Origin: Campylobacterales bacterium
GTDB taxonomy: Bacteria > Campylobacterota > Campylobacteria > Campylobacterales > QNZT01
Reading direction: 5' to 3'
NCBI GenBank assembly: GCA_024278835.1
Contig: JAJRSK010000025.1
Location: forward strand, 41,907-105,906
DNA: 64,000 nt
Every line of letters begins with the position of its first letter. The first letter of the stretch is position 1. A model generated the notes under the pieces. It saw only the letters and a program-made list of their open reading frames with translations, was not told the DNA's origin and did no database searches. A program made the translations under genes and the position numbers. This document shows positions 8,247 through 61,244 of the stretch, piece by piece.

Positions 8247-8932
8247 TCTCTAAATCCTCTATGTGTAAAATTTGACCTTATCAAGGCCTTAGAATAATCA
8301 TGTCGTGGATGTTCTAACACGTCGCTAATCTTACCACGCTCGACTATCAGACCATCTTTTAAGATTGCGATATCTTCACATAACATCCGCGTTATCTCCA
8401 CTTCATGGGTTACAAAAAGTATCTTATATCCCATCTCTTTTTGTAACCTTTTTAAGAGTATCATGATAGCCTTTTTTGTCTGGGAGTCAAGCGCGGTGGT
8501 TGGCTCATCTAAAAGTAAAAGCTTTGGATGGGAACTAAGTGCCATGGCGATGACGGCACGCTGGAGTTGTCCACCACTTAGTTCTGAGGGGTAACGAAAG
8601 AGTAAATCCCCTTCCAATTCCACCATCTCCAAAAAGCGCATCGCTTCCTCTTGGGGGATAAAAAACTGTTCATTGATCTTGGTCAGTGGGGAGAGCGCCG
8701 TAAAGGGATTTTGCACCACAATAGCCACATTTTTTCCACGCGTTAAGGAGAAGTCGCTCTTCACATCAAGTACCACATCCAAACTCTGAGGCAACATCCC
8801 CAAAAGCGCTTTTAAGGTTAGTGATTTACCACTACCACTCTGCCCCACTAAAGCCAAAGAGTTTTTTATCTCAAATGCGATATCGACTAAGATCTTATCA
8901 TCGGATTTTATCTCTAGTTTATTGACTATCAT
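8243..8932 (-). CDS. ABC transporter ATP-binding protein
   Basis: Walker A GQSGSGKS, signature LSGGQLQR, Walker B LLLLDEP. 4-nt overlaps with both neighbouring genes. Confidence 0.8.
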   Translation of the reverse strand: MIVNKLEIKSDDKILVDIAFEIKNSLALVGQSGSGKSLTLKALLGMLPQSLDVVLDVKSDFSLTRGKNVAIVVQNPFTALSPLTKINEQFFIPQEEAMRFLEMVELEGDLLFRYPSELSGGQLQRAVIAMALSSHPKLLLLDEPTTALDSQTKKAIMILLKRLQKEMGYKILFVTHEVEITRMLCEDIAILKDGLIVERGKISDVLEHPRHDYSKALIRSNFTHRGFRE

Positions 8933-10020
8933 GATAACTTCTCTTTTAATTTCATTAAAAAATCTCTCATCACTCTCTCCTCTACATTGAGACGCAAGAT
9001 AATACGCAATATCGCCGACTTCACCGTAGGTGGACGAATCGCCCCTATCAAAAATCCCTCTTCTTTAGCAAAAGCTTTTAACGCCATCACCTTCTGAGTA
9101 TCCCCTACGTCTATCTTTAAAATCAAGCCTTCTATCTTTGTGTCAAAAATCTCTCTGACTATCAACTGTCGCTGCTTTTTCGCAAGAGAAAAATCTTCAA
9201 GCTTCTCCTCAATCTGCAATAAAGCTTGATGTGCTAAAGCGATATCAAAAAGAGAAGGCGCCGTCGCATAGACTATCGCCTTGGCTCTATTTTGTAAAAA
9301 ATCGATGATTTCTTGACTTGCCAAGATATACGCTCCATAAGAGCCCATCGCTTTTCCAAGTGTGCCCATCTTGATATGATTAGGTTTTGGACTGATATCA
9401 TGATAGGTAAAGACACCCAAGAAATCCTCACCAAGCACACCAGAGCTATGCGCCTCATCCACTATCATGATAGCATCAAATGCATCACAAATAGTAAATA
9501 TCTCCTTCTCTAGCACATCCCCGGCCATAGAGTAAATCCCCTCCACCGCTACAATAGCGCGCTGATAAGTTCTATTTTGCAAAATACGCTTTAAATCCTC
9601 TGCATCATTATGCTTGAAAAAAACCACTGCACATTGTAAAAGCTTAGAGGCTAAAATTCCAGATGCGTGATACTCTTCATCTAAAATCAAAATATCTTTT
9701 TTACGAGGCAAGGCTTCTATGAGAGAGAGATTGGCTAAAAAACCACTTCCTACCACCATCGCTGCTTCAAAACCATTGCGCCATTTGAGGTAGTTTTCAA
9801 ACTCTTGATGTATAGGATGGTAACCATTAACAAGTTGTGAAGCCTTAGGAGCGTGTGTGCGATATCCTCTCACTACTTCAACCGCTTTATCAAATATCTC
9901 AAAATCTTCAGCCAAGCCTAGATAATCATTGGATGCCAAGTCTATCAAGTTATCATGATAGAGTTCTCGACTTCGATAGAGATTTACTTTTTTGAGGGCT
10001 TTTAACTCTTTTTGATACAT
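8929..10020 (-). CDS. bioF: 8-amino-7-oxononanoate synthase-like class-II PLP aminotransferase
   Basis: SNDYLGL motif, DEAHS, and a PLP-lysine context GTLGKAMG. Length is typical of BioF/Kbl. Confidence 0.6.
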   Translation of the reverse strand: MYQKELKALKKVNLYRSRELYHDNLIDLASNDYLGLAEDFEIFDKAVEVVRGYRTHAPKASQLVNGYHPIHQEFENYLKWRNGFEAAMVVGSGFLANLSLIEALPRKKDILILDEEYHASGILASKLLQCAVVFFKHNDAEDLKRILQNRTYQRAIVAVEGIYSMAGDVLEKEIFTICDAFDAIMIVDEAHSSGVLGEDFLGVFTYHDISPKPNHIKMGTLGKAMGSYGAYILASQEIIDFLQNRAKAIVYATAPSLFDIALAHQALLQIEEKLEDFSLAKKQRQLIVREIFDTKIEGLILKIDVGDTQKVMALKAFAKEEGFLIGAIRPPTVKSAILRIILRLNVEERVMRDFLMKLKEKLS

Positions 10021-10562
10021 TAGATAAAAGGGAGTAGTTTCTCTATTCCCAGTCCCATTGCATTTGACTCCAATCCCTTAACTTCCTTAATATAAGGTTT
10101 ACAAAAACCCTCTACCATGCATGCTCCTGCCTTGCCTTGCCACTCACCAGAATCTAGATATGCTTCCAAAGCCTCTTCATCAAAGATATCAAAAATATAA
10201 TCCGTCGAAGAGATATCCAGAAAAAAGAGAGATTTTGACTCATAAATCATACAGGTAACGATAGAAGTCACAGACCCACTTTGAAGTGTGAGTATCCTTT
10301 TTGCATCATCTCTATCTTTGGCTTTTCGTAAAATCTCTCCAGCTGAAGTGACTACCGTATCAGCTACTAAAAGTGGTATCTCTAAACCCATCTCTTTTTT
10401 ACACGCTTTGTACTTACCCATCGTCGCTTGATAGACAAAGTTTTTAGGTGTTGTTGCGATGATAGCATCTTCATCAAAATCACACCCTTTTTGTCTAAAA
10501 GAGATGCCAAAATCTCGTAATATCTTTGCACGTGAATCTGAATTTGACGCCAGCACTATCAT
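10020..10562 (-). CDS. maf: Maf-like nucleoside-triphosphate pyrophosphatase
   Basis: [15 protein letters not shown]... N-terminus and overall Maf pattern; 180 aa. Confidence 0.7.
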   Translation of the reverse strand: MIVLASNSDSRAKILRDFGISFRQKGCDFDEDAIIATTPKNFVYQATMGKYKACKKEMGLEIPLLVADTVVTSAGEILRKAKDRDDAKRILTLQSGSVTSIVTCMIYESKSLFFLDISSTDYIFDIFDEEALEAYLDSGEWQGKAGACMVEGFCKPYIKEVKGLESNAMGLGIEKLLPFI

Positions 10563-11041
10563 GATAATATCATCCCAAAATAGAGTGCGGTAAGTCCCAA
10601 AAAGATATTAATCGTAAAGAGATAGTGTGCAATGAGTCGGATGTTATCTTTTGCCTGTGGCGAATCACTCGCCAAACAGCGCTTTTTAGCCTCAATGATT
10701 TTATAATACCCAAGAAGAAAATTTAAAAACATCAAGACCCAAATCGCCTCTTTACTCCCTACTATCGCCCCAAGCGTAGGATCTTTAGTCTCATAGCCCT
10801 GCCCTATCTCCATGATAGCACCTGTAATGGCCAAGATGATGATAAAAGGAAAGAGAAAATTAAAATAGCGTCTAAAGGTACGAAGAGAAGTGCGAATCAT
10901 CACCTTTTCATTAGGAATCTGCTTGAGTGATGGATAAACCGCCACGATGAACATCACCATCCCCCCTATCCAAACCATAGAGGCAATATTGTGTAGGGGC
11001 AAGATGATAAAAGCAAACTCTTCATAAAATGATTTTATCAA
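10559..11041 (-). CDS. Small 4-TM membrane protein (CopD-like / unknown)
   Basis: Four hydrophobic segments; no diagnostic motif recognised. Confidence 0.35.
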
Positions 11042-13665: not shown

Positions 13666-14157
13666 ATGAAAAGATTTCTCAAAGAGGGCATTATTACCCT
13701 GATTTTAGCCTTTATTCTTGTCAATGTTATCAGCTATTTTAAAAGACCCCAGCTCACATTTGACACTCTTCCTTCTATGACGATACCGATGGTAAATGGT
13801 AAAGAATTTCATAGTGATGCCTATCATGATAAGCCCCTTATCGTTCACTTTTGGGCAACATGGTGCCCGACTTGTAAACTAGAGATTTCCAACTTCAATA
13901 CCATTGCAAATGAATATAATCTCATCACTATAGCTGTGCAATCAGGAGAGAATGAAGCGCTTAAAAAATTCATGAAAGAGAAGGAATTAACATTCCCCCT
14001 TATCAATGATAGAAATGGCGTGTTAGCTAAAAAGTTTGCTATTAGTGCTTATCCCACCACATTTATCTTTGATAAAGATGGCAAGGTAGCATTTTCCGAG
14101 GTAGGTTATACTTCGACTTGGGGGATTAAACTTCGGATGTGGTGGCTTGGGCTATGA
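13666..14157 (+). CDS. TlpA/ResA-family thiol:disulfide oxidoreductase
   Basis: N-terminal TM anchor and thioredoxin motif WATWCPTC. Confidence 0.75.
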   Translation: MKRFLKEGIITLILAFILVNVISYFKRPQLTFDTLPSMTIPMVNGKEFHSDAYHDKPLIVHFWATWCPTCKLEISNFNTIANEYNLITIAVQSGENEALKKFMKEKELTFPLINDRNGVLAKKFAISAYPTTFIFDKDGKVAFSEVGYTSTWGIKLRMWWLGL

Positions 14158-15154
14158 TAGCATCTACAATTTTCTTAGCCCCATCTCTCTCTATCATGAT
14201 AGTCAATCCCTTGCTCATCGCTTCTATATCTAACGCCAAGATTTCATCTATCATGATAGGTTCCAACGCTTCCTGTGCCACCACCATCGCCAAGCCCTTG
14301 TCAGCTAAAAACTTTGCGTTATGATACTGATGATTTCCGGCAGCGTATGGATAGGGAATGAAGAGTGCGGGTAACTGCGAGGCGGTGAGTTCCCAGACTG
14401 TGCTTGCCCCAGCACGACATATAGCAAAGTCAGCCTCTTTTATCTTCTCTGCTAAGTGCTTGGAAAAATCAAATAAATCTACCTCTATCGCATTATCATG
14501 ATAGAACTTTTTGCACTTCTCTAAATCTCTCTTTCCGCATTGGTGGATGATGTTTATCCCTCTATCTCTCAGTTTTTTTGCCACGCTCAGGGCAAAGTCA
14601 TTTATCGCACTTGCTCCCTGACTCCCTCCTAAAAAGATGATTGTCTTTATCTCTTTTCTCACCCTTGCATTGTCAAAGTAAATATCTCTCACAGGGTAAT
14701 CTTTTATCTCACTATCATGATAAGAAGAAAAGAGCATCATGGCTTTGGGGGCGAAGAGTTTGTTGAGCCTGCCCATGATAGCATTTTGTTCATGCATATA
14801 AAACTTTTTTTCACTCATAATAGCGGCAAATGATGCGGGAGCAGCGGAGTAGCCACCCACAGAGAAAACAGCCTCAACCTTGTGAGTCTTAAAGATATGA
14901 CGCACCTCCACCGTAGCTTTAAAGATATCTAGCAAAGCACCTATTTTAGCAAAGCCCTTTTTGTTGACCACACCTGAAGTCTCTAAAAAGTACTTATCCT
15001 CCCAGCCTTCATCCTCTTGAAACCATGCTCTATCTTGTCCGTATGTTGAACCTATAAAGAGTGGTTTGATACCTCTCTTATTAAGTTCTTCTTTGATAGC
15101 TTTGGCGATGGTGAGGTGTCCACCAGTACCACCACCTGTGATAGCAATATTCAT
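14126..15154 (-). CDS. murG: UDP-GlcNAc:lipid I GlcNAc transferase MurG
   Basis: N-terminal GGTGGH motif and MurG-length GT28 fold pattern. Sits next to ftsW. Confidence 0.9.
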   Translation of the reverse strand: MNIAITGGGTGGHLTIAKAIKEELNKRGIKPLFIGSTYGQDRAWFQEDEGWEDKYFLETSGVVNKKGFAKIGALLDIFKATVEVRHIFKTHKVEAVFSVGGYSAAPASFAAIMSEKKFYMHEQNAIMGRLNKLFAPKAMMLFSSYHDSEIKDYPVRDIYFDNARVRKEIKTIIFLGGSQGASAINDFALSVAKKLRDRGINIIHQCGKRDLEKCKKFYHDNAIEVDLFDFSKHLAEKIKEADFAICRAGASTVWELTASQLPALFIPYPYAAGNHQYHNAKFLADKGLAMVVAQEALEPIMIDEILALDIEAMSKGLTIMIERDGAKKIVDAIIAQATTSEV

Positions 15155-16524: not shown

Positions 16525-16532
16525 AATAACTT

Positions 16533-16580: not shown

Positions 16581-17009
16581 ATGGGAATCGAAATTAGTAA
16601 ATATGCTTCTATCGCGGAAGATGCTTTAAAGTATCGTGGTATCAGACAAGATATGATTGCTGGCAATATTGCCAATGTTGATACTCCCTTTTATAAAGCA
16701 AAAGATATAGGCTTTGAAGAGATGCTTGCCAAGAGTGCCTCTCTCTTAGAGGAGAAAGAACCAAGGTTAAAAATGGCAAAAACAGACGGTATGCATCTCT
16801 CCCCAGCAGAGGAGACGAGTGCCCACAAGGCAGATATCTTTTTTCGTCCAAACCACGGCACGCGCAACGATGGCAATAGTGTGGACTTGGATGTAGAAAC
16901 GACAGAGATGAGTAAAAATGCTATCATGATAAACGCGATTGCAGCAGCACTCAAAAAGAAATCTATGCTCTTTAAAAGCATGATAGATACTTCATCGAGA
17001 GTATCATGA
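16581..17009 (+). CDS. flgB: Flagellar basal-body rod protein FlgB
   Basis: Rod-protein N-terminal motif (IAGNIANVDTPFYK) and the flgB-flgC-fliE order. Confidence 0.85.
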   Translation: MGIEISKYASIAEDALKYRGIRQDMIAGNIANVDTPFYKAKDIGFEEMLAKSASLLEEKEPRLKMAKTDGMHLSPAEETSAHKADIFFRPNHGTRNDGNSVDLDVETTEMSKNAIMINAIAAALKKKSMLFKSMIDTSSRVS

Positions 17010-17018
17010 TAGAAAAAA

Positions 17019-19879: not shown

Positions 19880-19923
19880 CCCTATCATGATACAATAAGT
19901 AGAAGAGCCAAGGGAGATGAGAG

Positions 19924-22900
19924 ATGATAAAAAAGTTTATTGCGTTTTCTATAGAGAAGTCGATACTTAACCATATATTTTTTCTTTTTTTACTCCTGCT
20001 TGGAAGCTTTGCTTATCTCAACATACCCAAAGAGATTTTTCCCCCTACCAACCTTGATGCTATCGCTATCTCTGGCTCTTATGCAGGGGCTAGTCCAGAT
20101 ATCTTAGACAAGATGGCAGTCAGTACCATCGAAGATGAACTCAAAAATCTCTCAGAGATAAGTAGCATAGAGAGCACTATCAAAAATGGTTTTTTTAGGA
20201 TAAAAGCCAATCTCAAAGATGGCGAGGACTTAGATGATACCCTTAGTGATGCCAAAGATATCATCTCCAATATCAGGCGTGATTTACCTAGTGATATGGA
20301 TGAACCAACTGCCAAAGTCATCAAAAATGCTTACCCACTCGTGACCATCGCCATCGCCTCGAATGAAGAGACAAAAAAACTACTTGTTGTCGCTGAGGCT
20401 CTCAAAAAAGAGCTCTCTTCTATAGGGGATTTAAGTGAGATTGATATTCGTGGTGATGCAGATGAGGAGTTGCTTTTTTCATTAGAAGAGAAAAAGATTG
20501 CAGCCCTTGGATTAGACAGCACAGCCATTATCCAAGCCCTCTCTTCTCTAAGCACTATCTTTCCTGTGGGGAGCATCAAAGAGCGTGGCAATCACCTCAC
20601 TTTAAGTACCTACAATGGTTTAAAGGATATTAAAGCCATTCGCCAAAGCATCATCACAGTGGGCAACAAAAAGGTACGCATAGGGGATATCGCAAAAGTC
20701 GATTTTGCCCTAGCCGATGCCACAGAAATCTCTCATTTTAACGCCCTACCCAATATCTCTGTCAATATCAACAAAGCAAAAACAGGTAACGCTATCACAC
20801 TAGTAAAAGAGATAAGAGCCATTCTTAAAACTTATGAGCAAAAATATAGTGCCTATAAGTTTGATGTCTATACGGACTCTTCTATCTGGATACGAAACCG
20901 CCTCAATACCGTTATCTCAAACATCCTTTTTGGGCTCATTCTCGTCACCCTCTCTATCTATATATTTGTCAATGCGCGTATCTCTTTTGTTGTTGCTATC
21001 GGTATCCCGACAAGTTTTCTCATCGGGCTCATCGCTACTGAAATGCTAGGTTACTCACTCAATATGCTCTCTTTATTAGGCGCGCTCATCGCCCTTGGTA
21101 TGCTTGTCGATGAAGCCATCGTCGTCGCTGAAAATATCCAACGCCACATCGAAGAGGGAGATGATGCCAAAACGGCTGCTATCAATGGGGCTAGTGAAAT
21201 GTTTCCAGCCGTACTTACCGCGACAGCTACCACGATATTTGCCTTTTTACCACTTTTGATTATGAGTGGAGAGATGGGTGTGTTTATCAAAATTCTTCCT
21301 ATCATGATATCTATACTACTACTCTCCTCTTTGTTTGAAGCTTTTTACTTTCTACCTCTGCATGCAAAAGAGTTACTCAAAGCCCATAAAGGGGTACATA
21401 GAAACGATAACTTATGGGAAAAGATGAAGAAAACATACATCAAAATTTTACACTTCTTACTCTCTTATCGTTTTATCATGATGGCTGTTTTTGTCATCAC
21501 AGTCCTAGGTGGTACTGCCTTGATGCTAAAAAATAGTAAGTTTCAACTCTTTCCTACCTTTGATACCACGCAGATTTATGTCAGCGGTAAAGTCAACAAA
21601 AACTTTTCCCTAGAACAGACCCAAGAACTTGTCACCAAAGTAGAAAAAATCTTACTAGAAAATCTTGACAAAGGAGACGTCAGCTCCGTCACCTCTATCT
21701 CAGGAATGAAACTAGATGCCAAATACAAAGCAGAGATAGGTGATAATCTCTTTCATATCTTTATCAACTTGCATGAACATATCCCAGAAAATTTTTACAA
21801 TCGCCTCATCAATCCTATCCTCTCGCCTGAGTATGATGATAGCGATATGCTGCGCTCCCATACTGCCCAACAGATAGCGGATGAGATAAAAGAGCTCACA
21901 AGAAGTTTCAATGACGATAAAGATTTTGAAGAGTTCTCTGTTGTCGTTCCAGGTGCGGGTATCGTAGAGAGTGATATCGATATCGCATTTTCAGGCGATG
22001 AGGCAAAGGTGATTGAAAGTATCGAAAAGTTAAAAGCCAAGATGCAAACGATAGAGGGTGTATACAATATCTCTGATGATTTAGTCGAGGGAGAAAAAGA
22101 GTTAAAACTCAAAGTCAATCGCTATGGGGAGTCTCTAGGATTTACAGAAAACTCCCTTGCTAGTACCTTACGACCCCTCTTTTTAAAATCAGAAATCTCT
22201 AAAATGTTTTATGAGGGCAAACTTACTAGGATAAAATCCCAAAGCCTCCATAAAGATGACTTTTCCACCTTACAAAATATTACTGTCACTATCCCTAACA
22301 CCAGCCAAAGCATCCTCCTCTCAGAAGTAGCAGCGTTTATCATCACGCCTTCCTACGCCTCTATCTTTAAAGAAGATGGTGAAAAGCTCTACTCTGTCCT
22401 TGCCTCTTTAAATAAAGAGTTATTGACCTCTAGCGAATTTTTAAGCCAAATAAAACCAACGTTAGAGAGTATCAAAAATTCTGCTGTGCATATAGAGATA
22501 AAAGGGGAAGAGAAAGAGAACAAAAAGATACAAAAAGAGATGATGCAGGCAGCAATTATCGCGATTTTTCTTATCTTTATCGCACTTATTTGGATGTTTG
22601 ACTCTATCTCTCTTTCACTTTTTGTACTCTCGACCATCCCACTCTCCCTCTTTGGAGTACTGCTTGGACACATCATCATGTCACTCAATCTTACGATGCC
22701 TGGTATGCTTGGTATCGTGGGACTTGCGGGCGTAGTGGTCAATGATGGCATCATCATGATAGACTTTATCAGACGCGCGGAGAGTTATGAGAGTTTTATC
22801 AAAAATGCCTCTTTAAGACTACGACCGATATTGCTCACTTCTATCACCACGATACTAGGACTCTCTACACTCATCTTTTTTGCCGCAGGGCAATCTGTCA

Positions 22901-32722: not shown

Positions 32723-32794
32723 CGACTTCCTTTATTCTGGATACTAGTTTACAATATCTATCATGATAAGAATATTAAATAACTTTGAATTAAT

Positions 32795-39623: not shown

Positions 39624-40169
39624 ATGAAAAAAAATAACACACTCCTACTTGGTATCGGAAATGTCCTCCAAAAAGATGACGGCATCGGCGTTTATGCTGC
39701 GGAGTATCTACTACACAACTACACTTTTACCCCTCACTTATCCATCATCAATGGTGGTGTAGAAGGCATCAAGCTACTTGATTTGTTTATAGAGTATGAA
39801 GAAATCATCATCATAGACACTATCATGATAGAGGATACTCCTGCCTCCATCTACAACATCCCCGCCCAAAAGCTAGGCGGCTATGGTTTAAACAGTGGCA
39901 GTGCCCATGAGATAGGTGTACTACAATGTCTTGATATGCTCGATATGCAAGCAAAAAAGAGACCAAAAGCCAATATCATCGGTATCATCCCTCAAGAAAT
40001 CACTTTTGAATTTGCTCTCAGTGAGAGACTTACAGAAGCATTTGATGGCTATATCAAGGTCATCTTGGCAGATTTACAATCCAAAGGCTTTGAAGCAACA
40101 AAGCATGATGATATCTCTCTAGAAAAAATCATAAACAAGTTTAAAGACCCTGCCTCTTTTAGAGTTTAA
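39624..40169 (+). CDS. [NiFe]-hydrogenase maturation endopeptidase (HyaD/HybD/HupD family), second copy
   Basis: LLLGIGNVLQKDDGIGVY N-terminus and a conserved His near the C-terminal third. Confidence 0.75.
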   Translation: MKKNNTLLLGIGNVLQKDDGIGVYAAEYLLHNYTFTPHLSIINGGVEGIKLLDLFIEYEEIIIIDTIMIEDTPASIYNIPAQKLGGYGLNSGSAHEIGVLQCLDMLDMQAKKRPKANIIGIIPQEITFEFALSERLTEAFDGYIKVILADLQSKGFEATKHDDISLEKIINKFKDPASFRV

Positions 40170-49648: not shown

Positions 49649-51812
49649 CCACAACCTGCCCCAACGCCACTCCTCCGTCATTTGGTGGTATCTCATTTGG
49701 AAATATCGCGTCAGGAATCTTCTCTAAAATCAGCTCTACCAAAACCCTATTTTGAAACACACCGCCACTTAGCACGAGGAGTAGATCATACTCGCCTGCT
49801 ATGGCTATGATGATTTCGACGATGGTGTTGAAAAACTTTGAGATTGCCTCTTTGGGTTTGTCGTTTACTATATCTTCTATCATAGGTAAAAAGTCTATCT
49901 CATCATCGTAGATGGCTATGGGGTAGCTTTCGGTGATGTTTTTATCGTACATCTCTTCTAACAACATACCGCTCTCGCCCTCGAAACTCATCTCTTGACA
50001 AATGCCTGTGAGTGAAGCGACGGCATCGAAGAGTCTGCCCATGGATGAGCTTAGTGGGGCGTTGAGTCCTTTTTGCCATGCTTTGTAGTGGATTGCGAGT
50101 TCCTTTTGGCTAAAGGCTTTTGTGGTGGGGTTTTGTATCTGCAACACTTTTTCGCTATAGAGATCAAACAGCAGACTCAAAGCGACACGACGAGGCTCTT
50201 TTATCGCTCTGGCTCCGCCTAAAAGTCTAAAAGGTTTTAGATGGGCTACCCTTTCATACCCTGTATAATCACAAACCAAAAACTCCCCACCCCACAGTGT
50301 GCCGTCATCGCCATATCCTGTGCCGTCAAATGCCACGCCAAGCACCTTCTCTTTTATCCCTTTTTCAGCCATGACGCTTAGTATATGTGCGTAGTGGTGT
50401 TGTATCTCTTTGATGTTTGTGAAGTTGGCTTTGGCGTATTTGGTCGATTCATAGTTTGGGTGTTTGTCGCAGGCTACGATATCGGGTGTAAATGCATAGA
50501 CTCTCTTTAGTATCTCTATATTTTTCTCAAAATACCCCACCGACTCTATCGTATCGAGGTCGCCGATATGAGGGGAGAGTATGACATGGTTATCAAATCC
50601 TATGGCGATTGTATTTTTTTGATTTGCTCCAAGGGCTAATACTTTTTTATCGAGTTTAAAGGGAAGTTTTATCGCACTAGGGGCGTATCCTCTGGCACGG
50701 CGTATCATGATAGTCTGGTTTTTGACCACCATCGTGACACTATCATCGCAACCATTGACTATCTCTCTATCGTGGTCAAGTAAAGCATCATAAACACCCT
50801 CTAATTTTTGCATCGATTCTAAATTGGTGGCAATGGGCTCGTCGGTGACATTGGCACTGGTTGCGACTAAGGGTCTGTTACATTTTTCCAACACAAGTAG
50901 ATGCAGTGGTGTGTAGGGTAGGAAAATGCCGATTTTTGAGATATGTGGAGCGACATATTTTGAGAGGGTGTTTGGTTTTGCTTGTAAAAGGACGATGGGG
51001 CGTTTGTTGGAGGTGAGGAGTGTTTGCTCTTTAGGGTTGATTTTGGCTAACTTTTTCGCTTCTTCTAATGTTTTTACCATGATAGCAAAGGGTTTGCTCG
51101 GGCGATGTTTTCTCTCTCTTAAAAGTTTCACAGCTTCATCATTTGTCGCATCGCAGAGCAGATGATAACCCCCTACCCCTTTGAGTGCCAGAATCTTCCC
51201 CTCTTCTAAGATTTTGACGGCTTCATCGATACGCATGTTCGTTGTAGGACCACACTCCCAGCACCCTATGGGTTGGGCATGGTAACGGCGATTTGTCGGG
51301 TCGTGGTACTCTTTCTCACAAGCGTTACACATCTTAAACTTATCCATGGAGGTGTTTTCTCTATCATAGGGAAGGGTTTTGATGATAGAGTATCGTACAC
51401 CACAATTTGTGCAAGTGATAAAAGGGTAGAGATAGCGTCTGTTATCTTTGTCAAAAAGCTCTCTTTGGCACGCTTGGCAGATGGAGATATCTGGAGGGAT
51501 GAGAGTGTTTGTCTTATCATGATAACTGCTTTGGATAATCATAAAAGCATCAAATGATTTTTTCTCAATCTCTTCTATCATGATAGACTCTATGCAAGAG
51601 AGTGGTGGCGCATCTGACTCTATCTCTTTGACAAATCTCTCTAAAGTTTTTTTATCACTATCTATCATGATAAGCACCCCCAAAGAGTCGTTGCTTACCT
51701 CGCCTTTGAGTTGATACTTTGTCGCTAGATTGTAGATAAAGGGGCGAAACCCCACCCCTTGTACCACGCCCGTGATACGAATCTTATAAGTAGTTTGCTC
51801 CATAGACGACAC
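49614..51812 (-). CDS. hypF: Carbamoyltransferase HypF
   Basis: Acylphosphatase domain (GVVQGVGFRPF), two Zn-finger pairs (CQAC...CTNCG; CNAC...CWECG), and YrdC-like and Kae1-like domains. Confidence 0.9.
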   Translation of the reverse strand: MSSMEQTTYKIRITGVVQGVGFRPFIYNLATKYQLKGEVSNDSLGVLIMIDSDKKTLERFVKEIESDAPPLSCIESIMIEEIEKKSFDAFMIIQSSYHDKTNTLIPPDISICQACQRELFDKDNRRYLYPFITCTNCGVRYSIIKTLPYDRENTSMDKFKMCNACEKEYHDPTNRRYHAQPIGCWECGPTTNMRIDEAVKILEEGKILALKGVGGYHLLCDATNDEAVKLLRERKHRPSKPFAIMVKTLEEAKKLAKINPKEQTLLTSNKRPIVLLQAKPNTLSKYVAPHISKIGIFLPYTPLHLLVLEKCNRPLVATSANVTDEPIATNLESMQKLEGVYDALLDHDREIVNGCDDSVTMVVKNQTIMIRRARGYAPSAIKLPFKLDKKVLALGANQKNTIAIGFDNHVILSPHIGDLDTIESVGYFEKNIEILKRVYAFTPDIVACDKHPNYESTKYAKANFTNIKEIQHHYAHILSVMAEKGIKEKVLGVAFDGTGYGDDGTLWGGEFLVCDYTGYERVAHLKPFRLLGGARAIKEPRRVALSLLFDLYSEKVLQIQNPTTKAFSQKELAIHYKAWQKGLNAPLSSSMGRLFDAVASLTGICQEMSFEGESGMLLEEMYDKNITESYPIAIYDDEIDFLPMIEDIVNDKPKEAISKFFNTIVEIIIAIAGEYDLLLVLSGGVFQNRVLVELILEKIPDAIFPNEIPPNDGGVALGQVVANKPLFYVRFG

Positions 51813-53706
51813 TCTCTTTTCCTATCGGGTAGGATTTATTTAAGAGTGGATTTCTCACTCTCATATTTCGCTCTATTCTACCCCAAAGTGACTGATTGGC
51901 AAATGTCGCACCTGAGAGTGTCAGCGTCGTGGCTTTTGTCTTGTCACTTAGTTGGGTAACGATATCAGCGATATAATCTCCAAAACTCTCATAGATGCTA
52001 TAACAGAGGATTGGATTTTGGGCACCACTAAGTTTAAAGCTCATCAGCGAAGCCAAAAAGGCATAATCATTGAAACGATTATCCTTGACTTTCGTATCGA
52101 TAAGCATACCCCCTTTACCCAAGAAACTTAACGCTTCAGAAGAGATACCATCAAAACTCTCATCTTCCAAACCTATCATGATAGCCACCACTTCAAAGAT
52201 ATCCACTTCGCCGCTTAGATTGTCTAATCTTTTGTACCTGTCTGGATATTTTGCTTTAAAGTTCTCTACCAATCTATCCGAACCCTCTCGAAGCTTGGAA
52301 ATATTTTCAAAAAGATTTTGGGTATCAAAGCTATTGGGTGGCACGACATCGATGACCTCTTTTTTGTTGTAGTACAAAAAGTGCAGACGACTATCAAAAT
52401 GCACACCGATAGCAGTCTCGCCCAATTTATCATGCTCAGCTAATACAGATAACATGGCTGCTTTAAACGCTGGAAATCTTTTCTGATTTTCGATAGTGAG
52501 TGTGATGTTTTCACGCTCCTCAATATAAACTTCCGTCGTCAAAATCTCTGAAAATCTATCCACACTATCGATAATTCGCCTACCATCGACCATCACAGAT
52601 GCTCTACCATCAGCGATAGCGACACGGTTTTTATCATTTTCTAACAGCGTAGGAAAGATAGCTCTCTCACCAGATTGTAAAAGTTTTGTATCTTGATTGA
52701 TAAAGAGTTTAAAATCCTCTTGAGGCTTGATAGGGATATCAAAATCAATCAAAAAATCCGCCTCTTCATCCTCATCACACTCCTCATAACTCAGATATGA
52801 AACACCCGCATTGCTAAGCTCTTTTGCCAATAACATACTCATCCCATCATCAGGATACTTAACCCATGTGCTACTGCCATAGAGGGCTTTTATCTCATCG
52901 CTCTTGGTGGCGACTCTCACAAGCGGTCGTTCGATACTCAAAAGTGCATTGAACTCTTGGGTAACCATCATCAGGTGCTTGTTTAAACTCGCAACTTCAG
53001 TCACCATCATGATAGAGTTTTTTAAGAGATTTTCTGGCTTTGGTACAAAAAACTTACGATACCCATGTGTGGTTTGCATCAATACTGTTTTACCTTTTGC
53101 GATAGCCCTTGCTGCCACTTCAAAAAGGGTGCGATAACTTCCTTTGTCATTGGCATATCTCTCAGATTTTTTATCGACCATCTTGATAGCGATACCACAC
53201 TCTATACAAGAGATAAGTGGAAAATCTTTTCGTAAAGGATTGCTCTTTAGCTCCTCTTGACAACGCTCACATGGCACCAAAAACTTCATACTTGAATTTT
53301 CACGAAGCATAGGATGCTTCTCTAAAAATGTATGCTGACTGCCACAAGCATTACAAGAGGTAAAAGGATAATAATAGCGTCGGCTACTAACATCAAACAT
53401 CTCTTTTTGACAAGTAGGACATAAGGAGATGTCGATAGGCAAGTCATTTTCCAAGAGTGGCTCAAATGCTGGTTTTTCATCTGTGATTTGATGTGAACTT
53501 CCAGACAAGTAGATAGAAGCTGGCAAAGCAGACTCAAGGGCAAGAAGATAACGCTCTATATGTTCATCCTCTTCATCCATTATCATGATAAGCTTCTCTT
53601 TACTATGACCTAGCTCTAACTTGACACCATGCTCTTGTGCCAAAGCTTTGATAATAGTTGCGATATACGCCTTGTTGCTCTTAAAATCTAAAGTAAATAT
53701 AAACAT
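51784..53706 (-). CDS. HypF-like paralog (Zn-finger region retained, catalytic domains degenerate); possible HydE-type accessory protein
   Basis: CPTC...CNACG and CERC...CIECG spacing matches HypF. The N-terminal acylphosphatase motif and the YrdC/Kae1 signatures are not recognisable. Confidence 0.5.
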   Translation of the reverse strand: MFIFTLDFKSNKAYIATIIKALAQEHGVKLELGHSKEKLIMIMDEEDEHIERYLLALESALPASIYLSGSSHQITDEKPAFEPLLENDLPIDISLCPTCQKEMFDVSSRRYYYPFTSCNACGSQHTFLEKHPMLRENSSMKFLVPCERCQEELKSNPLRKDFPLISCIECGIAIKMVDKKSERYANDKGSYRTLFEVAARAIAKGKTVLMQTTHGYRKFFVPKPENLLKNSIMMVTEVASLNKHLMMVTQEFNALLSIERPLVRVATKSDEIKALYGSSTWVKYPDDGMSMLLAKELSNAGVSYLSYEECDEDEEADFLIDFDIPIKPQEDFKLFINQDTKLLQSGERAIFPTLLENDKNRVAIADGRASVMVDGRRIIDSVDRFSEILTTEVYIEERENITLTIENQKRFPAFKAAMLSVLAEHDKLGETAIGVHFDSRLHFLYYNKKEVIDVVPPNSFDTQNLFENISKLREGSDRLVENFKAKYPDRYKRLDNLSGEVDIFEVVAIMIGLEDESFDGISSEALSFLGKGGMLIDTKVKDNRFNDYAFLASLMSFKLSGAQNPILCYSIYESFGDYIADIVTQLSDKTKATTLTLSGATFANQSLWGRIERNMRVRNPLLNKSYPIGKESVVYGANYL

Positions 53707-53714: not shown

Positions 53715-54275
53715 TTATAAATTTCGGTGGTCATGTGTCGCCATCGTGGGGTTGGCAAAATCTTCTATAATCTCCTCTAGTGAGACTTTAGAAGACTTTG
53801 ACTCTACTTGTATATCATGATAGGCTAAGACTTCTATGATTTTATCCACAAGAGAAGGGAAAGCATCTTTAACAACCTCAGTTAAATTGGCATCTACTGG
53901 GAGTATATCATCAGGTTTCATCGATACGATATCCACCTCAGCCATAGCATCATCTAAAAATGAACAGATTTCTAACATCATCAAAAGTTCTACTTCATTA
54001 GGGCTTTGTCTAGTATTTCCAAGGCTCATCATCTCTTCTACTGAAAAATGCGACACAGCACCAGAACTCTCTCCAACAGAAGTGGTACTAACAAGCAAGA
54101 CATAGTCATACTCTTGGAAATAGGGCATTAGGCTAAAACCAAATGTCCCGCCATCCATAACATCTACATTTTTGGGAAGTATGAAGTTCTTTTCTATATA
54201 GCTGGTAGCATAGACACCTAGTCCGTCATCATTAAACATGATGTTTCCTATCCCAATGAGTGCAACTCTCTTCAC
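53715..54275 (-). CDS. hydD: Hydrogenase maturation endopeptidase HydD
   Basis: GTG start. ALIGIGNIMFNDDGLGVY pattern. Follows hydC. Confidence 0.8.
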   Translation of the reverse strand: MKRVALIGIGNIMFNDDGLGVYATSYIEKNFILPKNVDVMDGGTFGFSLMPYFQEYDYVLLVSTTSVGESSGAVSHFSVEEMMSLGNTRQSPNEVELLMMLEICSFLDDAMAEVDIVSMKPDDILPVDANLTEVVKDAFPSLVDKIIEVLAYHDIQVESKSSKVSLEEIIEDFANPTMATHDHRNL

Positions 54276-58515: not shown

Positions 58516-59811
58516 TTAGTGCGTCGTACAAACAGAGCAAACATCAAAGGTTTTGAAAACAAACTCTGCTAGTTTTTCATCGCTTAAGCCTAACATCGCT
58601 TGTTGAGAGATACCTGGTGTTTCTCTATCGCCATTGCTTAGATTCCATTGTGTGGGTGTTATCATCTGATAGTTTCTGATAATCCCCTCCTCTAGTGTGA
58701 CTTTATGGATAAGTGAACCTCGCGCTGCTTCGACTGCTCCCACCCCAAATCCACTTAGTTTTTTGATATCTACCTCTGGCTTGATGTACGAAGGCTCACT
58801 CAAATCTATCTCTTTTAAAAGTGTCAAAGAGTGGTGTAGTAGTTGCAGTATCTCACAAGTTCGTGCTATGATACGAGAAAAGAGACTATCCCCATGTCGT
58901 CTATGTGATGCTTTGATGAGTGGGGTTTTTAAGAGCATCGCACGGCTGAGGGGGCCTACTTCGTAGTATTTTCCTTTATACATGACATTTTTAGCAAGGG
59001 AGTCCACATTGTCAAAGAGTTGCAGGTGGGATTCATCGATGCGTTCTTGCACGCGTGTTTTGAGTGATTTTCCTCTTTTAAAATAGGAACTTTCCCCAAA
59101 AACGATAAATCTATCAAAACTTTTCCCCAAATCTTCCCAACCATTTTTGATAATTGTATTGAGCATATAGGGCAAATCCCCCTCTTTGGAGAGTAGTGTC
59201 TCAATATTTTCACAAGAGAGTAACTTCTCACTCTCTGCCACAACGATATGCGTTTCAAAAAATTGCAAAGTCTCTTCAAGGATATTTTTCACTTGCAATA
59301 TCTCTAAGCCAGTCGGTTCACAAACCACACCACCCACGATGGCATAAGAGTTGTGTGGATACTGCCCTGCTAGATGTGCGATGGCTTTGGACATCAATCC
59401 ACTAGGCTTAGCAGCATGCATAATCTTCTGTTTCTCACCTAAAAGTGGCAAAAGCGTGAGATAAAACCACTTAAAATGGTTTTGAATGAGTTCAAAATTG
59501 AGTGTTAATTCGCGTAATATCTTTGCCTTGTTGCTTATCATGATAGAGGGATAACAGGCTTCTAGTGCTTTGACAGAGGCTTGCAGATGGGCATGTCCAC
59601 AGATACCACACACGCGTGGGGTAATCGTCAAGGCATCGAGTGCTGGTTTTGATTTGAGTATCTCTTCCATCCCACGACCCGAAAGAAACGCGATATCCAC
59701 AAAAGAGATTTTATCCTCTTCAAAATGAAAATTGAGTGTCGCCTCCCCTTCAATCTTCTCTATCAACTTTTTTACCGCAATCTTTTTACTCATCAAACAG
59801 ATCCTTTTCAA
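58516..59811 (-). CDS. Cytoplasmic group-2-like [NiFe]-hydrogenase large subunit
   Basis: PRVCGICGHAH N-terminal motif. The protein ends exactly at DVCSVCTTH, with no C-terminal extension. Confidence 0.8.
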   Translation of the reverse strand: MKRICLMSKKIAVKKLIEKIEGEATLNFHFEEDKISFVDIAFLSGRGMEEILKSKPALDALTITPRVCGICGHAHLQASVKALEACYPSIMISNKAKILRELTLNFELIQNHFKWFYLTLLPLLGEKQKIMHAAKPSGLMSKAIAHLAGQYPHNSYAIVGGVVCEPTGLEILQVKNILEETLQFFETHIVVAESEKLLSCENIETLLSKEGDLPYMLNTIIKNGWEDLGKSFDRFIVFGESSYFKRGKSLKTRVQERIDESHLQLFDNVDSLAKNVMYKGKYYEVGPLSRAMLLKTPLIKASHRRHGDSLFSRIIARTCEILQLLHHSLTLLKEIDLSEPSYIKPEVDIKKLSGFGVGAVEAARGSLIHKVTLEEGIIRNYQMITPTQWNLSNGDRETPGISQQAMLGLSDEKLAEFVFKTFDVCSVCTTH

Positions 59812-60655
59812 GTCTCTCTATCTTAAAAGCTTTTGTCACACCACTCAAAGTCAGATACGCCCGCTTGGGTACACCTAGTGGCAAAGTGTGCGGGATACCC
59901 ATGTTTTTCTTCGTAGTAAAAAGATTTTGTTTTGGGAAAGAGGGCTCCGTACATCCCATACATGGTTGCCCTGCTCTGGTTTTGGAGTTTACTTCATTCC
60001 ATAAAATCTTATTGCAACTCCCATGGGTATATGGTGCTTGGCAGCCATGGTCATAAAACATACACCCCTCTTTTTTACCAAAACTGTGGTCATCTATCTT
60101 GTATTCAAAATATTCATTTCTCGTGCAGCCATTATGTACGGTGTAAGAAAAAAACTCTTTAGGACGGTGATACTTATCTAAATTTAGGGTGATTTCATCG
60201 CGTATCATATAGAGCGTATTTGCCAAGAGATCAGGATGGATAGGACAGCCAGAGATACTCACTACCTTATCATGATAGGCAAACTCCCTACGCACCTCTT
60301 CTGTAAAGAGTAATCCACCACTATCATGATAGGGACTCTCTTTAAAGATTCCGCCAAAAGTAGAACAAGTCCCAACCGTCACAATCTTTTTGACATGTGG
60401 GGCATAAAGGTTGATGATATCAACGATTGACTCTCCTGCCCGTTTAAACTCCGAAGAGATAGAACCTTCGATGAGCAATATATCACTATCATGATAGCTT
60501 CTTACCATCTCTTCTAAGCTATAAGCACTATCAAAGAGAGGATGATGCACAAAGCTAAAATCTTCTAAAAATTTTTCAAGATGTGGATAATTTAAAAATG
60601 AGTGTGTATTGCCATTGCAGGCAATGCCTTGTAGCCAGAAAAGTTTAGGTTTCAT
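59786..60655 (-). CDS. Cytoplasmic group-2-like [NiFe]-hydrogenase small subunit (no Tat signal)
   Basis: The likely start MKPKLFWLQGIACNGN lacks any signal peptide. Fe-S Cys ligands are present. Confidence 0.8.
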   Translation of the reverse strand: MKPKLFWLQGIACNGNTHSFLNYPHLEKFLEDFSFVHHPLFDSAYSLEEMVRSYHDSDILLIEGSISSEFKRAGESIVDIINLYAPHVKKIVTVGTCSTFGGIFKESPYHDSGGLLFTEEVRREFAYHDKVVSISGCPIHPDLLANTLYMIRDEITLNLDKYHRPKEFFSYTVHNGCTRNEYFEYKIDDHSFGKKEGCMFYDHGCQAPYTHGSCNKILWNEVNSKTRAGQPCMGCTEPSFPKQNLFTTKKNMGIPHTLPLGVPKRAYLTLSGVTKAFKIERLEKDLFDE

Positions 60656-61244
60656 AAGAGCGCAACGCTTGGTAGATATTATTTGCGATATCATCAACAT
60701 AGTTATCTAAACTTTTAGGCAATATCTCTTCACCTTTTAGAAAAACCATGCCACCAAGATAGCCCATAAAGAGCCCAAATGCAGAGAAAAAATCTTGATC
60801 TCTAAGCTCCCCTTTCTCCACACCCTCTTCAAAAAATATCATAATTTCTGTCACAAAATCACTCACACAAATCATCCCCTCACAACCATCTTTAAAGACT
60901 TCACGATTTGAGAGATAGACACGCAAAAAATACTCAATCATCTCTGGCTCTTTTTGCGCGATAGTAAAATAGGTCGTAACAAAAGCGTGAATTTTCTCTT
61001 TTCAAGATAACTCTTGTTCATTGATTTTTCTAAGCTCTTTTCCAAGATAGGTAGAGATATATTTGATAATTTCCTTGGCTAAAATATCTTTGGATTTGAA
61101 GTAGTTGTACATATTGCCCACACTCATGTTGAGGGCTTTAGCGATATCAGGAATCGTCGTCGAATAAAAACCATCTGCAGAAAAAAGCTTGAGTGCCCCT
61201 ATCATGATAGACTCTTTTCGCTGCTCTTTGCTTGGTTTTGCCAT
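60645..61244 (-). pseudogene. TetR-family regulator interrupted by one in-frame TGA
   Basis: The N-terminal HTH ORF (61005..61244) and the C-terminal ORF are in the same frame, separated only by TGA at 61002..61004 (...NEQELS*KEKIHAFVTTYF...). Confidence 0.65.

Follow-up and report, generated by a model that had tools for sequence, protein, structure and literature searches.

A short palindrome that point mutations have scattered through unrelated genes of uncultured Campylobacterota, resembling HIP1 and Neisseria uptake sequences

Introduction

Why does one short palindrome recur in gene after gene of a Campylobacterales bacterium, and is it kept as DNA or as protein? The window analyzed here is a stretch of 64,000 nt (GCA_024278835.1, contig JAJRSK010000025.1, positions 41,907 to 105,906) in which the 10-bp palindrome TATCATGATA occurs 42 times by exact count, where about 0.1 copies are expected. 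A first-pass annotation of this DNA knew of no described equivalent for the motif, and our literature search likewise found no earlier description.

Results

Exact recounting reproduced the 42 starts listed by the first-pass annotation and the 15 copies that extend to the 12-mer CTATCATGATAG (Table 1). Its eight core-only sites also stood in number, with 50 copies of the 8-mer ATCATGAT in the window, except that the site placed at 3049 lies at 3039; gene names agreed with Pfam where checked. In 100 dinucleotide-preserving shuffles of the window, TATCATGATA appeared 0.12 times on average and twice at most, which puts the excess at about 350-fold. With an order-3 Markov model, for whose training the motif was masked in DNA of the clade, the excess came to about 100-fold (340 observed against 3.2 expected in 383 kb). 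Under the maximal-order Markov model that the first-pass annotation had suggested, the window yields 42 copies against 41.4 expected (observed/expected about 1), since the 9- and 8-mer sub-words are almost never found outside the motif; this test is thus uninformative here and refutes nothing. Around the copies, conservation stops one base out on each side, with C at -1 in 25/42 and G at +1 in 30/42. Across the motif-bearing Campylobacterota lineages, density is about one copy per 1.4 kb (~0.7 per kb); it is uneven, with motif-poor blocks of 6-10 kb; by extrapolation, a 2-Mb genome would hold roughly 1,400 copies.

Table 1. Copies and near-copies of the word in the window (YHD, Tyr-His-Asp; IMI, Ile-Met-Ile; fractions, genomes with the site conserved; L numbers, loci of relatives)
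Feature	Position	Strand	Gene and reading	Relatives
TATCATGATA 10-mer	8459..8468	.	ABC ATPase, IMI	5/5
TATCATGATA 10-mer	8927..8936	.	ABC ATPase ATG start + BioF-like gene TGA stop	
TATCATGATA 10-mer	9396..9405	.	BioF-like, YHD	5/5
CTATCATGATAG 12-mer	9462..9473	.	BioF-like, IMI	3/5
TATCATGATA 10-mer	9951..9960	.	BioF-like, YHD	3/5
TATCATGATA 10-mer	10557..10566	.	Maf ATG start + CopD-like gene TGA stop	
TATCATGATA 10-mer	13822..13831	.	TlpA-like, YHD	5/5
CTATCATGATAG 12-mer	14191..14202	.	MurG, IMI	2/5
CTATCATGATAG 12-mer	14248..14259	.	MurG, IMI	2/5
TATCATGATA 10-mer	14494..14503	.	MurG, YHD	5/5; outgroups FYEKN etc.
TATCATGATA 10-mer	14713..14722	.	MurG, YHD	5/5
TATCATGATA 10-mer	16922..16931	.	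FlgB, IMI	3/5
TATCATGATA 10-mer	17002..17011	.	flgB TGA stop	
TATCATGATA 10-mer	19883..19892	.	intergenic, PBP2 / RND pump	
TATCATGATA 10-mer	21300..21309	.	RND pump, IMI	
CTATCATGATAG 12-mer	31357..31368	.	EI24/CysZ-like gene ATG start	
CTATCATGATAG 12-mer	31708..31719	.	EI24/CysZ-like, IMI	
TATCATGATA 10-mer	32759..32768	.	intergenic, ClpP-like / NfeD-like	
TATCATGATA 10-mer	32858..32867	.	NfeD-like gene ATG start	
CTATCATGATAG 12-mer	34431..34442	.	PfkA, IMI	
TATCATGATA 10-mer	35137..35146	.	PfkA ATG start	
CTATCATGATAG 12-mer	37963..37974	.	RNase R, IMI	
CTATCATGATAG 12-mer	39820..39831	.	HycI-type protease, IMI	
TATCATGATA 10-mer	40248..40257	.	DUF695/RraB protein, YHD	
CTATCATGATAG 12-mer	41565..41576	.	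HypX-like, YHD	
TATCATGATA 10-mer	42418..42427	.	HypX-like, YHD	
TATCATGATA 10-mer	42856..42865	.	HypX-like, YHD	
CTATCATGATAG 12-mer	43366..43377	.	HypE, YHD	absent in L105/L107
TATCATGATA 10-mer	45095..45104	.	HypD, YHD	also in L105
TATCATGATA 10-mer	47443..47452	.	Ni-transporter-like, YHD	also in L103
TATCATGATA 10-mer	50703..50712	.	HypF, IMI (QTIMIRR)	
TATCATGATA 10-mer	51515..51524	.	HypF, YHD	window only (relatives DER/NSS)
CTATCATGATAG 12-mer	51575..51586	.	HypF, IMI	
TATCATGATA 10-mer	51663..51672	.	HypF, IMI	
CTATCATGATAG 12-mer	52173..52184	.	HypF paralog, IMI	
TATCATGATA 10-mer	53581..53590	.	HypF paralog, IMI	
TATCATGATA 10-mer	53813..53822	.	HydD/HycI protease, YHD	
TATCATGATA 10-mer	59536..59545	.	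hydrogenase large subunit, IMI	
TATCATGATA 10-mer	60268..60277	.	hydrogenase small subunit, YHD	L103 = one-off TATCATGACA
CTATCATGATAG 12-mer	60321..60332	.	hydrogenase small subunit, YHD	
CTATCATGATAG 12-mer	60486..60497	.	hydrogenase small subunit, YHD	
CTATCATGATAG 12-mer	61199..61210	.	TetR-family gene, IMI	
one-off TATCATGATG, 8-mer core intact	1392..1399	.	Wza-like exporter	
one-off TATCATGATG	2923..2930	.	Wza-like exporter, YHD frame	
one-off CATCATGATA	3039..3046	.	Wza-like exporter	
one-off TATCATGATG	21475..21482	.	RND pump	perfect motif in L189
one-off CATCATGATA	22753..22760	.	RND pump	perfect motif in L189
one-off CATCATGATA	47508..47515	.	Ni-transporter-like gene	
one-off CATCATGATA	53006..53013	.	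HypF paralog	
two-off CATCATGATT	63366..63373	.	UvrD-like helicase	

The frame bookkeeping of the first-pass annotation held on recount: 17 copies read as Tyr-His-Asp and 17 as Ile-Met-Ile, an ATG start comes from five, and two lie between genes. To the flgB stop at 17002, the only stop it had counted, two must be added, giving three TGA stops in all; at 8927 and 10557 stop and start overlap as ATGA, and both copies figure among starts as well as stops. The window's proteins contain 19 YHD, where 0.9 would be expected, and 18 of these are encoded as TATCATGAT; IMI occurs 20 times against 3.7 expected, 19 of them as ATCATGATA, where Ile codon usage predicts motif codons at about 14%. The sole protein-conserved YHD, in the EYHDP of HypF, is encoded by other codons (TACCACGAC). 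Shared tripeptides in distant orthologs had been named in advance as the mark of protein conservation; none of ~90 Sulfurovum-like HypF homologs carries IMI or YHD, and MurG homologs at <=66% identity have variable residues at the motif sites. At QTIMIRR of HypF, IMI is common to a wider set of relatives.

Comparison with orthologs revealed that copies arise through substitution without indels, point changes converting existing coding sequence to the word in the two frames that tolerate it; together with the unshared flanks, this bears out the earlier denial of a mobile-element origin. Copies once made stay across species, synonymous positions included: 24/36 orthologous sites (67%) were retained between species, against 10% for control 10-mers, at a third-codon identity of just 49-59% in the same comparison. 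Such retention is equally compatible with any selected function.

The word YTATCATGATAR has a hard core, TCATGA, and soft outer positions, since one-off variants are in excess (4.8-fold) only where the mismatch falls at positions 1/10 or 2/9; those with a mismatch in the inner six stand at background level, as do two-off variants. Full words contain 66% of all TCATGA occurrences, and outside ATCATGAT there are 49 copies versus ~68 expected. CATG as such is not enriched.

The excess is a property of the lineage, present in independent assemblies (from NCBI, ENA, JGI and Logan). In eight such assemblies, all from related uncultured Campylobacterota, density is 0.5-0.95 copies per kb, and their loci chosen independently of the motif hold 125 copies in 179 kb. 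Densities per kb in motif-bearing loci were 0.52 (L188), 0.86 (L189), 0.67 (L190), 0.78 (L191), 0.95 (L103), 0.55 (L207) and 0.93 (L208), versus 0 (L192), 0.13 (L105) and 0.06 (L107) in motif-poor sister loci; L208 and L192 are themselves sisters. Outgroup loci (866 kb) hold two copies altogether. In a HypF tree, motif-rich proteins are interleaved with motif-less ones. Distribution among relatives is patchy, as judged partly from a protein proxy (IMI/YHD counts) and, for some lineages, from DNA. MurG is 93% identical to that of L188, where its neighbours reach 75-85%, and the pattern is reversed against L189, which is evidence of recombination between lineages.

Discussion

YTATCATGATAR is a genome-wide DNA word, neither a protein motif nor a mobile element, and we put at about 95% the probability that it is a hyper-abundant word maintained at the DNA level across the lineage. 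The first-pass annotation proposed a DNA-level signal kept at the cost of protein sequence, with which the near-exclusive motif codons, the distant orthologs without the tripeptides, the substitution origin and the lineage-wide excess in independent assemblies agree. Perfect two-fold symmetry and an all-or-none hexamer core suggest a symmetric (dimeric) protein that reads double-stranded DNA sequence-specifically, and gain and loss of a reader or driver gene is suggested by the presence of the word in one sister lineage and its absence in another.

The word is best read as a HIP1-like or uptake-sequence-like self tag with a symmetric reader protein, in probable connection with methylation and transformation. 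A methylated TCATGA/CATG site would probably be the place where this reader acts or the cue that guides it, and the word would tag self DNA in natural transformation or recombination. DNA with the (methylated) word would be preferentially taken up or integrated; word-gaining alleles would spread, and word-losing alleles would be replaced. Such molecular drive has been proposed for the uptake sequences of Neisseriaceae (DUS) and Pasteurellaceae (USS), and recently for HIP1. A methyltransferase-motif screen of 485 kb of loci returned only a small MTS-type methyltransferase, and no uptake receptor or competence gene was identified in the loci examined; since neither a cognate methyltransferase nor a receptor was found there, the self-tag mechanism is one that we infer. 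Uptake or recombination bias as the mechanism behind the word is proposed tentatively, at somewhat under even odds.

HIP1 (GCGATCGC) and other cyanobacterial highly iterated palindromes are, like TATCATGATA, perfect and short; they too exceed expectation 15- to 300-fold and lie scattered among unrelated genes. HIP1 also spread by substitution, with one-off variants deviating at the ends (PMC4390886), and its sites are conserved between genomes (PMC5861425). Both words exceed controls in conservation, enclose an inner hexamer resembling a Type II methyltransferase site, and are patchily present, with exceptional lineages (PMC4390886, PMC5861425). Furthermore, HIP1 increases transformation, an effect that depends on methylation (bioRxiv 10.1101/2024.09.10.611283; 10.64898/2026.06.24.733823). 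TATCATGATA differs in sequence, in being A+T-rich, in length (10-12 bp versus 8), in phylum (Campylobacterota), in density, which is below the up to 1 per 350 bp of HIP1, and in that no cognate orphan methyltransferase was identified in the loci screened.

DUS and USS likewise are words of 9-12 bp that recur about once per kb, are common to related species and are tolerated in particular frames where they impose tripeptides on less constrained protein parts, with sister lineages lacking the word and evidence of recombination between lineages. They are asymmetric and often form inverted pairs at terminators, whereas TATCATGATA is its own reverse complement and almost wholly intragenic (only 2/42 copies intergenic), which runs counter to an uptake tag. 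The uncultured organisms that carry it are not known to have a ComP-like receptor or a competence phenotype. In the same phylum, uptake by Campylobacter jejuni needs recognition of methylated own DNA, through CtsM and the short methylated palindromic site RAATTY (PMC8468864). RAATTY is a 6-bp degenerate site that is not known to be hyper-abundant.

A different origin would be a methylation-directed biased repair ratchet without organism-level function (Elhai's HIP model), in which an orphan methyltransferase marks TCATGA and biased repair nearby drifts the neighbours to the full palindrome, which is then protected. The model predicts the pattern observed here, a hard inner hexamer and an excess of one-offs confined to the outer positions (PMC4390886). 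The scarcity of TCATGA outside the full word, the spread through substitution and the on/off pattern of sister lineages, as from gain and loss of one enzyme, fit it too, but the methyltransferase was not found in the screened loci, and MutS/MutL-type mismatch repair is required. To our knowledge, Helicobacter and Campylobacter do without such repair, and these relatives may lack it too. Xu et al. took strong positional conservation to favor selection over neutral replenishment (PMC5861425), but a protective ratchet could produce the same pattern. On balance, we regard the ratchet as unlikely.

Still less probable, in our judgment, is that ordinary purifying selection keeps the word as a target bound by an abundant protein of chromosome architecture or genome maintenance (nucleoid organisation, segregation, Chi-like recombination signal). 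For a dimeric DNA-binding protein, a perfect 10-12 bp palindrome is a fitting target; sites persist from species to species, and the motif-poor blocks are of a size similar to the HIP1 periodicity, which Xu et al. took as chromosome structure (PMC5861425). Moreover, unrelated phages and genomes, phage contigs L195 and L199 among them, carry the same 10-mer in operator- or iteron-like arrays, although its flanks are C..G in the clade and G..C in phages. Fur-box-like TGATA/TATCA half-sites, matS, Noc and SlmA sites and phage operators are also dimer-read palindromes of 10-16 bp, but they number tens per genome and are intergenic or regional, where the word is about thousand-fold and intragenic. 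The same holds for parS: palindromic architectural sites occur in tens, not about a thousand. An architectural role would also leave the ~95% intragenic placement at the protein's expense without functional reason, and close sister lineages do without the word.

Protein-level selection for the two tripeptides, which the shared IMI of QTIMIRR might favor, is rejected on the codon data and the tripeptide-free distant HypF and MurG homologs, and has next to no probability when one DNA word gives two unrelated tripeptides, start/stop overlaps and intergenic copies. Equally negligible is an origin as the footprint or insertion of a very small mobile element, or as an error of sequencing or assembly, suggested by repetition alone and rejected given indel-free sites, unshared flanks, in-frame placement within conserved genes and recurrence in independent assemblies.

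Several long conserved genes (AlaS, PBP2, FtsW, PBP1A and Wzz) are motif-free in 5/5 genomes; there, a free-running drive would need a strong check by protein constraint.

Abundance and fine structure of the word

The 10-bp palindrome TATCATGATA is a DNA-level, lineage-specific feature, generated by substitution, conserved in position and built on a hard hexamer core. The first-pass annotation had claimed 42 exact copies in the window and 15 copies of the full 12-mer CTATCATGATAG, and both counts were reproduced, the 42 copies with coordinates unchanged; its list of sites carrying only the 8-mer core ATCATGAT agreed with a total of 50 octamers, except that the site placed at 3049 lies at 3039. 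The large excess was likewise borne out, since dinucleotide-preserving shuffles of the window (38.9% G+C) gave 0.12 expected copies and a maximum of 2. Indeed, the word is by far the commonest 10-mer of the window, ATCATGAT is the sole outlier among its palindromic 8-mers, and only 18 one-mismatch variants occur beside the 42 perfect copies. Over-representation amounts to ~100- to 350-fold, where the HIP class (named for HIP1, the highly iterated palindrome of cyanobacteria) is delimited by at least 15-fold genome-wide, and the pooled motif-bearing loci of eight assemblies hold 125 copies in 179 kb (0.70 per kb). A maximal-order Markov model, proposed earlier as a check, predicts 41.4 copies against the 42 observed (ratio ~1), and was rejected as uninformative because the sub-words occur almost only inside the motif.

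In 383 kb of clade DNA, 340 perfect copies were counted against 3.2 expected; one-off variants were 4.8-fold enriched at positions 1/10 and 2/9, chiefly as CATCATGATA, TATCATGACA and their complements, and stood at background level at the inner six positions (0.9-1.1-fold), as did two-off variants. In the 179 kb of motif-bearing loci, two-thirds of all TCATGA occurrences lie inside the full word, and no enrichment of CATG as such was found. Since one-off variants are enriched at the outer positions only and TCATGA lies mostly within the word, the latter consists of an all-or-none TCATGA core with softer shoulders, the same pattern that Elhai described for HIP1 (PMC4390886). Beyond one flanking base per side nothing is conserved (in the window, C at -1 in 25/42 and G at +1 in 30/42), and the flanks are Y..R in 77% of all clade copies. 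The outer flanking pair counts as a soft component of the word, because the 5' C is favoured even at free third codon positions.

Reading frames and protein level

The earlier frame table agrees gene by gene with a simple gene set of the window, and the gene identities examined were confirmed by Pfam and neighbour annotations. Seventeen copies are read as Tyr-His-Asp (YHD), 17 as Ile-Met-Ile (IMI), five serve as Met-Ile starts and two lie between genes; TGA stops are supplied by three copies, two of them ATGA stop/start overlaps that are counted among the starts too. YHD is the most over-represented tripeptide in window proteins (19 vs 0.9 expected), written TATCATGAT in 18/19 cases and followed by an A-initial codon in 17, and IMI occurs 20 times vs 3.7 expected, 19 of these written ATCATGATA, for which Ile codon usage predicts ~14%. 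The only YHD conserved at the protein level, in the EYHDP of HypF, is encoded by TACCACGAC, and there the motif is avoided; this site makes a handy internal control for codon choice.

Among 120 HypF homologs, a handful of close relatives carry 4-6 IMI/YHD per protein, and none were found in the ~90 Sulfurovum-like sequences. Almost every MurG homolog of at least 69% identity preserves both YHD sites; below ~66% identity they are mostly variable (FYEKN, FYKKE and others), a few homologs at 63-65% retaining FYHD. The claim that the signal is maintained in DNA had been staked on what distant orthologs carry, and it survived, most distant HypF and MurG orthologs being without IMI/YHD at motif sites. 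Selection on the protein for these tripeptides is excluded by the fixed codons and by the variable distant orthologs, which mostly fail to carry them at motif positions.

Origin, upkeep and placement of copies

When motif positions were aligned with orthologs, as had been suggested, HypF, MurG, FtsW and 30 other genes showed no indels at motif sites. In genomes without a given copy, the orthologous site is ordinary coding sequence, often 1-3 substitutions off (e.g., I-F-I, I-H-V, Y-D-D). The word is dispersed in unrelated sequence and, as in the HIP class, spread by nucleotide substitution, the codon alignments being substitution-only. The view that it is not a mobile element holds, with dissimilar flanks, no indels and no extended consensus; a MITE, REP or RPE-type mini-element is ruled out by the absence of indels relative to empty sites and of conserved ends.

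In genes common to five genomes, the perfect word was retained in 24 of 36 comparisons (67%) of window sites, against 10% for control 10-mers of the same alignments, with third-position identity of 49-59% (binomial 4e-16, phylogeny uncorrected); site conservation above that of control words is also characteristic of the HIP class. Five sites are perfect in 5/5 genomes; the remaining ones, perfect in 3/5, 2/5 or 1/5, conflict with one another in pattern. MurG site 657 is common to the motif-bearing relative L208 and the main group and absent from L207 (motif-bearing) and L192 (motif-poor), which suggests that predisposed codons gained the word repeatedly or, alternatively, that lineages exchanged it. 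Over window positions 4155-19879, compared with L188-L191, MurG is 93% identical to L188 and 82% to L189, its neighbours being 75-85% identical to L188; FlgC, FtsW and PBP1A show the reverse (93-98% to L189, 83-90% to L188). Such gene-by-gene mosaic identity is consistent with, and suggests, homologous recombination between lineages.

Copies are unevenly spaced in the window, with gaps of 10.1, 8.5 and 5.7 kb (P = 0.002 for the second-largest gap under random placement). One copy excepted, the word is missing from AlaS, PBP2, FtsW, PBP1A and Wzz of the five genomes, each of which has copies in MurG, BioF, TlpA, ABC ATPase and FlgB; the places open to the word are clearly limited by protein constraint. 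A motif-free 10-kb block with PsrABC-like genes is variable and possibly acquired, because it adjoins PBP2 in the window and L189 but is not found there in L188, L190 or L191.

Distribution among lineages

Among named homologs, even the closest (Caminibacter for MurG, Sulfurovum for HypF) reach no more than 60-64% identity, and the source is therefore an uncultured Campylobacterota lineage. A census, in which contigs of one genome per species were scanned for two copies 30-60 nt apart, returned at least 101 stretches, dominated by the metagenome-assembled genomes CAZCUH01 and JANTGR01, both labelled Sulfurospirillum, with many stretches each; the other matches listed came from unrelated taxa and were single pairs or short arrays with a regular period.

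Copies of TATCATGATA per kb in the window and in relatives' loci picked by homology, not by motif
Locus	Identity to window	Copies per kb
Window	reference	0.66
L188	MurG 93%	0.52
L189	MurG 82%	0.86
L190	MurG 80%	0.67
L191	MurG 74%	0.78
L207	MurG 68%	0.55
L103	HypF 74%	0.95
L208	MurG 65%	0.93
L192	MurG 66%	0
L105	HypF 73%	0.13
L107	HypF 69%	0.06

A MurG search of metagenome contigs yielded two close relatives only, the rest serving as outgroup background (78 MurG loci, 866 kb), with 2 copies altogether. An exact match to the window MurG came from a 1.6-kb Logan contig alone. Assemblies rich in the word include GCA_054041865.1, GCA_054040595.1, GCA_054035135.1 and GCA_024762875.1; of the motif-poor loci, L192 stems from JGI 3300005095 and L105 from ERZ2433807. 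L208 differs from its sister L192 (MurG 78%, aconitase 90%), the former being word-rich and the latter empty; four ATCATGAT 8-mers in L192, vs 0.4-0.9 expected, may be remnants of the word. In the HypF tree, where IMI/YHD serve as a protein proxy for the motif and DNA was checked for four members, the proteins rich in IMI/YHD form four or more clusters, between which motif-less proteins are placed; clusters predicted from the proxy include those of P0017, P0021, P0022, P0023 and P0027. Presence of the word is patchy, as if a driver had been gained and lost. No alternative hyper-abundant 10-mer was found in the motif-poor relatives, L107 having a 33-nt in-frame element instead.

L190 (JANTGR010000002.1), a syntenic relative of the window, bears the GenBank label 'Sulfurospirillum sp.', as does CAZCUH01, whose motif density is like that of the clade and whose fetched loci overlap the window nowhere. 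This label looks doubtful for both JANTGR01 and CAZCUH01, because the best 120 matches of the window MurG, of which ~1/5 carry any name, include no Sulfurospirillum, the nearest named one being ~60% identical (Caminibacter).

Relation to known words and possible function

To our knowledge, hyper-abundant short words that override coding are confined to very few groups, namely cyanobacteria (HIP1), Neisseriaceae (DUS, a DNA uptake sequence) and Pasteurellaceae (USS, likewise), and their origin is still debated. A word of ~10 bp at about one per kb, common to a clade and absent in outgroups, resembles DUS/USS; the latter, however, are asymmetric, with inverted pairs frequent at terminators, whereas the Campylobacterota word is a palindrome. 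Neither of the two intergenic window copies, among 42, is terminator-like. DUS/USS are also defined by a specific receptor through which DNA bearing them is preferentially taken up. HIP1 proper (GCGATCGC) is not matched, the word and the context (Campylobacterota) being different, and a strand-biased word of the Chi/KOPS type is ruled out for a sequence equal to its own reverse complement. Neither the sequence nor any HIP- or uptake-type word of Campylobacterota turned up in full-text searches, in line with the earlier remark that no described equivalent was known, and we file the word as a HIP/DUS-type hyper-abundant word outside HIP1 or DUS proper, with no earlier description found.

The reading that we favour, at a probability of about 0.4, is a self-DNA tag that would act in transformation or recombination, probably in a methylation-dependent manner, and would be read by a symmetric protein. 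It is favoured because the word is like uptake sequences in its density, its behaviour in reading frames and its sharing within a clade, and like HIP1 in its palindromy and core. The core of a HIP-class palindrome is the site of a resident, orphan DNA methyltransferase, and TCATGA/CATG has the form of a typical Type II site. In place of a tag, the copies could reflect a ratchet of methylation-directed repair, which we hold to be unlikely, or an architectural binding site, which seems more improbable still. The self-DNA tag is further favoured because HIP1, when methylated, raises transformation (bioRxiv 10.1101/2024.09.10.611283) and correlates with DNA-uptake machinery (bioRxiv 10.64898/2026.06.24.733823), and because C. 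jejuni, of the same phylum, admits only appropriately methylated DNA (PMC8468864). A motif screen with Pfam follow-up found no DNA methyltransferase, uptake receptor or competence gene in 485 kb of loci; it yielded nothing beyond a small methyltransferase of the MTS type and an HhH-GPD glycosylase, neither of them a driver candidate. An Rfam search of the window gave no match.

It is conceivable, at rather less than an even chance, that this is a HIP-/DUS-type palindrome for self-recognition which evolved independently of those in cyanobacteria, Neisseriaceae and Pasteurellaceae, and which is switched on or off between sister Campylobacterota lineages, the pairs being L208 (on) vs L192 (off) and L103 (on) vs L107 (off). 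If so, comparison of these pairs could name a single writer or reader gene (methyltransferase, uptake receptor or repair nuclease), and the question of how such words arise, now 30 years old, would become directly testable. In this third, unrelated case the word is longer and very sharply defined, sister genomes contrast clearly in its presence or absence, and independent metagenome assemblies are numerous; these properties amount to a natural comparative experiment from which the driver could be found, and which could test methylation-dependent self-recognition in transformation as a general principle. In practice, the word marks the lineage in metagenomes and its absence flags foreign DNA; future genetic tools for this lineage would probably have to include it, methylated.

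Other repeats and features

Coordinates of features in the window, in the motif-poor locus L107 and in phage contigs
Locus	Feature	Coordinates	Strand
Window	Motif-free block: PsrABC-like molybdopterin oxidoreductase, cytochromes b and c, flavoprotein	21311-31357	
Window	MazF/PemK-like toxin gene	44246-44614	-
Window	Uma2-family putative endonuclease gene	47838-48434	+
Window	HypF EYHDP, YHD codons	51300-51308	-
Window	TetR-family gene	60645-61244	
Window	In-frame TGA in TetR-family gene	61002-61004	-
L107	GAAGTAAGAGGTAAGAGTGAAGAAGTAAGAATT	5196-5228	+
L107	GAAGTAAGAGGTAAGAGTGAAGAAGTAAGAATT	5489-5521	-
L107	GAAGTAAGAGGTAAGAGTGAAGAAGTAAGAATT	6052-6084	-
L107	GAAGTAAGAGGTAAGAGTGAAGAAGTAAGAATT	11639-11686	+
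L107	GAAGTAAGAGGTAAGAGTGAAGAAGTAAGAATT	13894-13926	+
L195	TATCATGATA array, IMG/VR phage contig, related to L199, 27-30% G+C	443-2138	
L199	TATCATGATA array, IMG/VR phage contig, related to L195, 27-30% G+C	520-2198	

The viral scan returned no phage with a dispersed, clade-like density of the word, the matches being arrays of operator or iteron type, differently flanked and judged to be unrelated. The phage contigs L195 and L199 hold 14 copies in ~1.7 kb of mostly non-coding DNA, in the context GGTATCATGATACC, where the flanks are G..C, opposite to the C..G of the window; these copies look like an operator or iteron array that probably has nothing to do with the clade motif. In unrelated genomes and phages (L084, L066, L204, L203, L022, L030 and L046), TATCATGATA occurs in short arrays with periods of 22, 24, 32, 44 and 68-75 nt, which look like iteron or tandem-repeat arrangements.

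The L107 element (GCA_054040575.1, a motif-poor sister lineage) is a ~33-nt repeat built of 7-nt units, three copies of which are inserted in frame in hypF; it is seen as extra peptides, such as LEVRGKREEVRIDGG and LTSYFLPLTS, in the HypF homologs P0008, P0010, P0020, P0024 and P0025, and looks like an RPE-like in-frame mini-insertion element.

The toxin and Uma2-family genes lie inside the hyp cluster of the window, and a literature search for a link between Uma2/DUF820 and HIP1 found none. In the motif-poor L105 and L107, the hyp cluster is interrupted by PemK, HepT/NTP-transferase, ParE and McrBC modules. The TetR-family gene, split by its TGA (ELS*KEK vs ELTSKEK in L103), is either a pseudogene or the product of a sequencing error. 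Across the 179 kb (window, L103, L188-L191, L207 and L208), GAATTC is strongly avoided, with 5 copies where hexamer palindromes of equal composition have a median of ~25 (range 5-222), which suggests an EcoRI-type restriction system, and GATATC is very frequent (222 copies), which may be a codon-pair effect.
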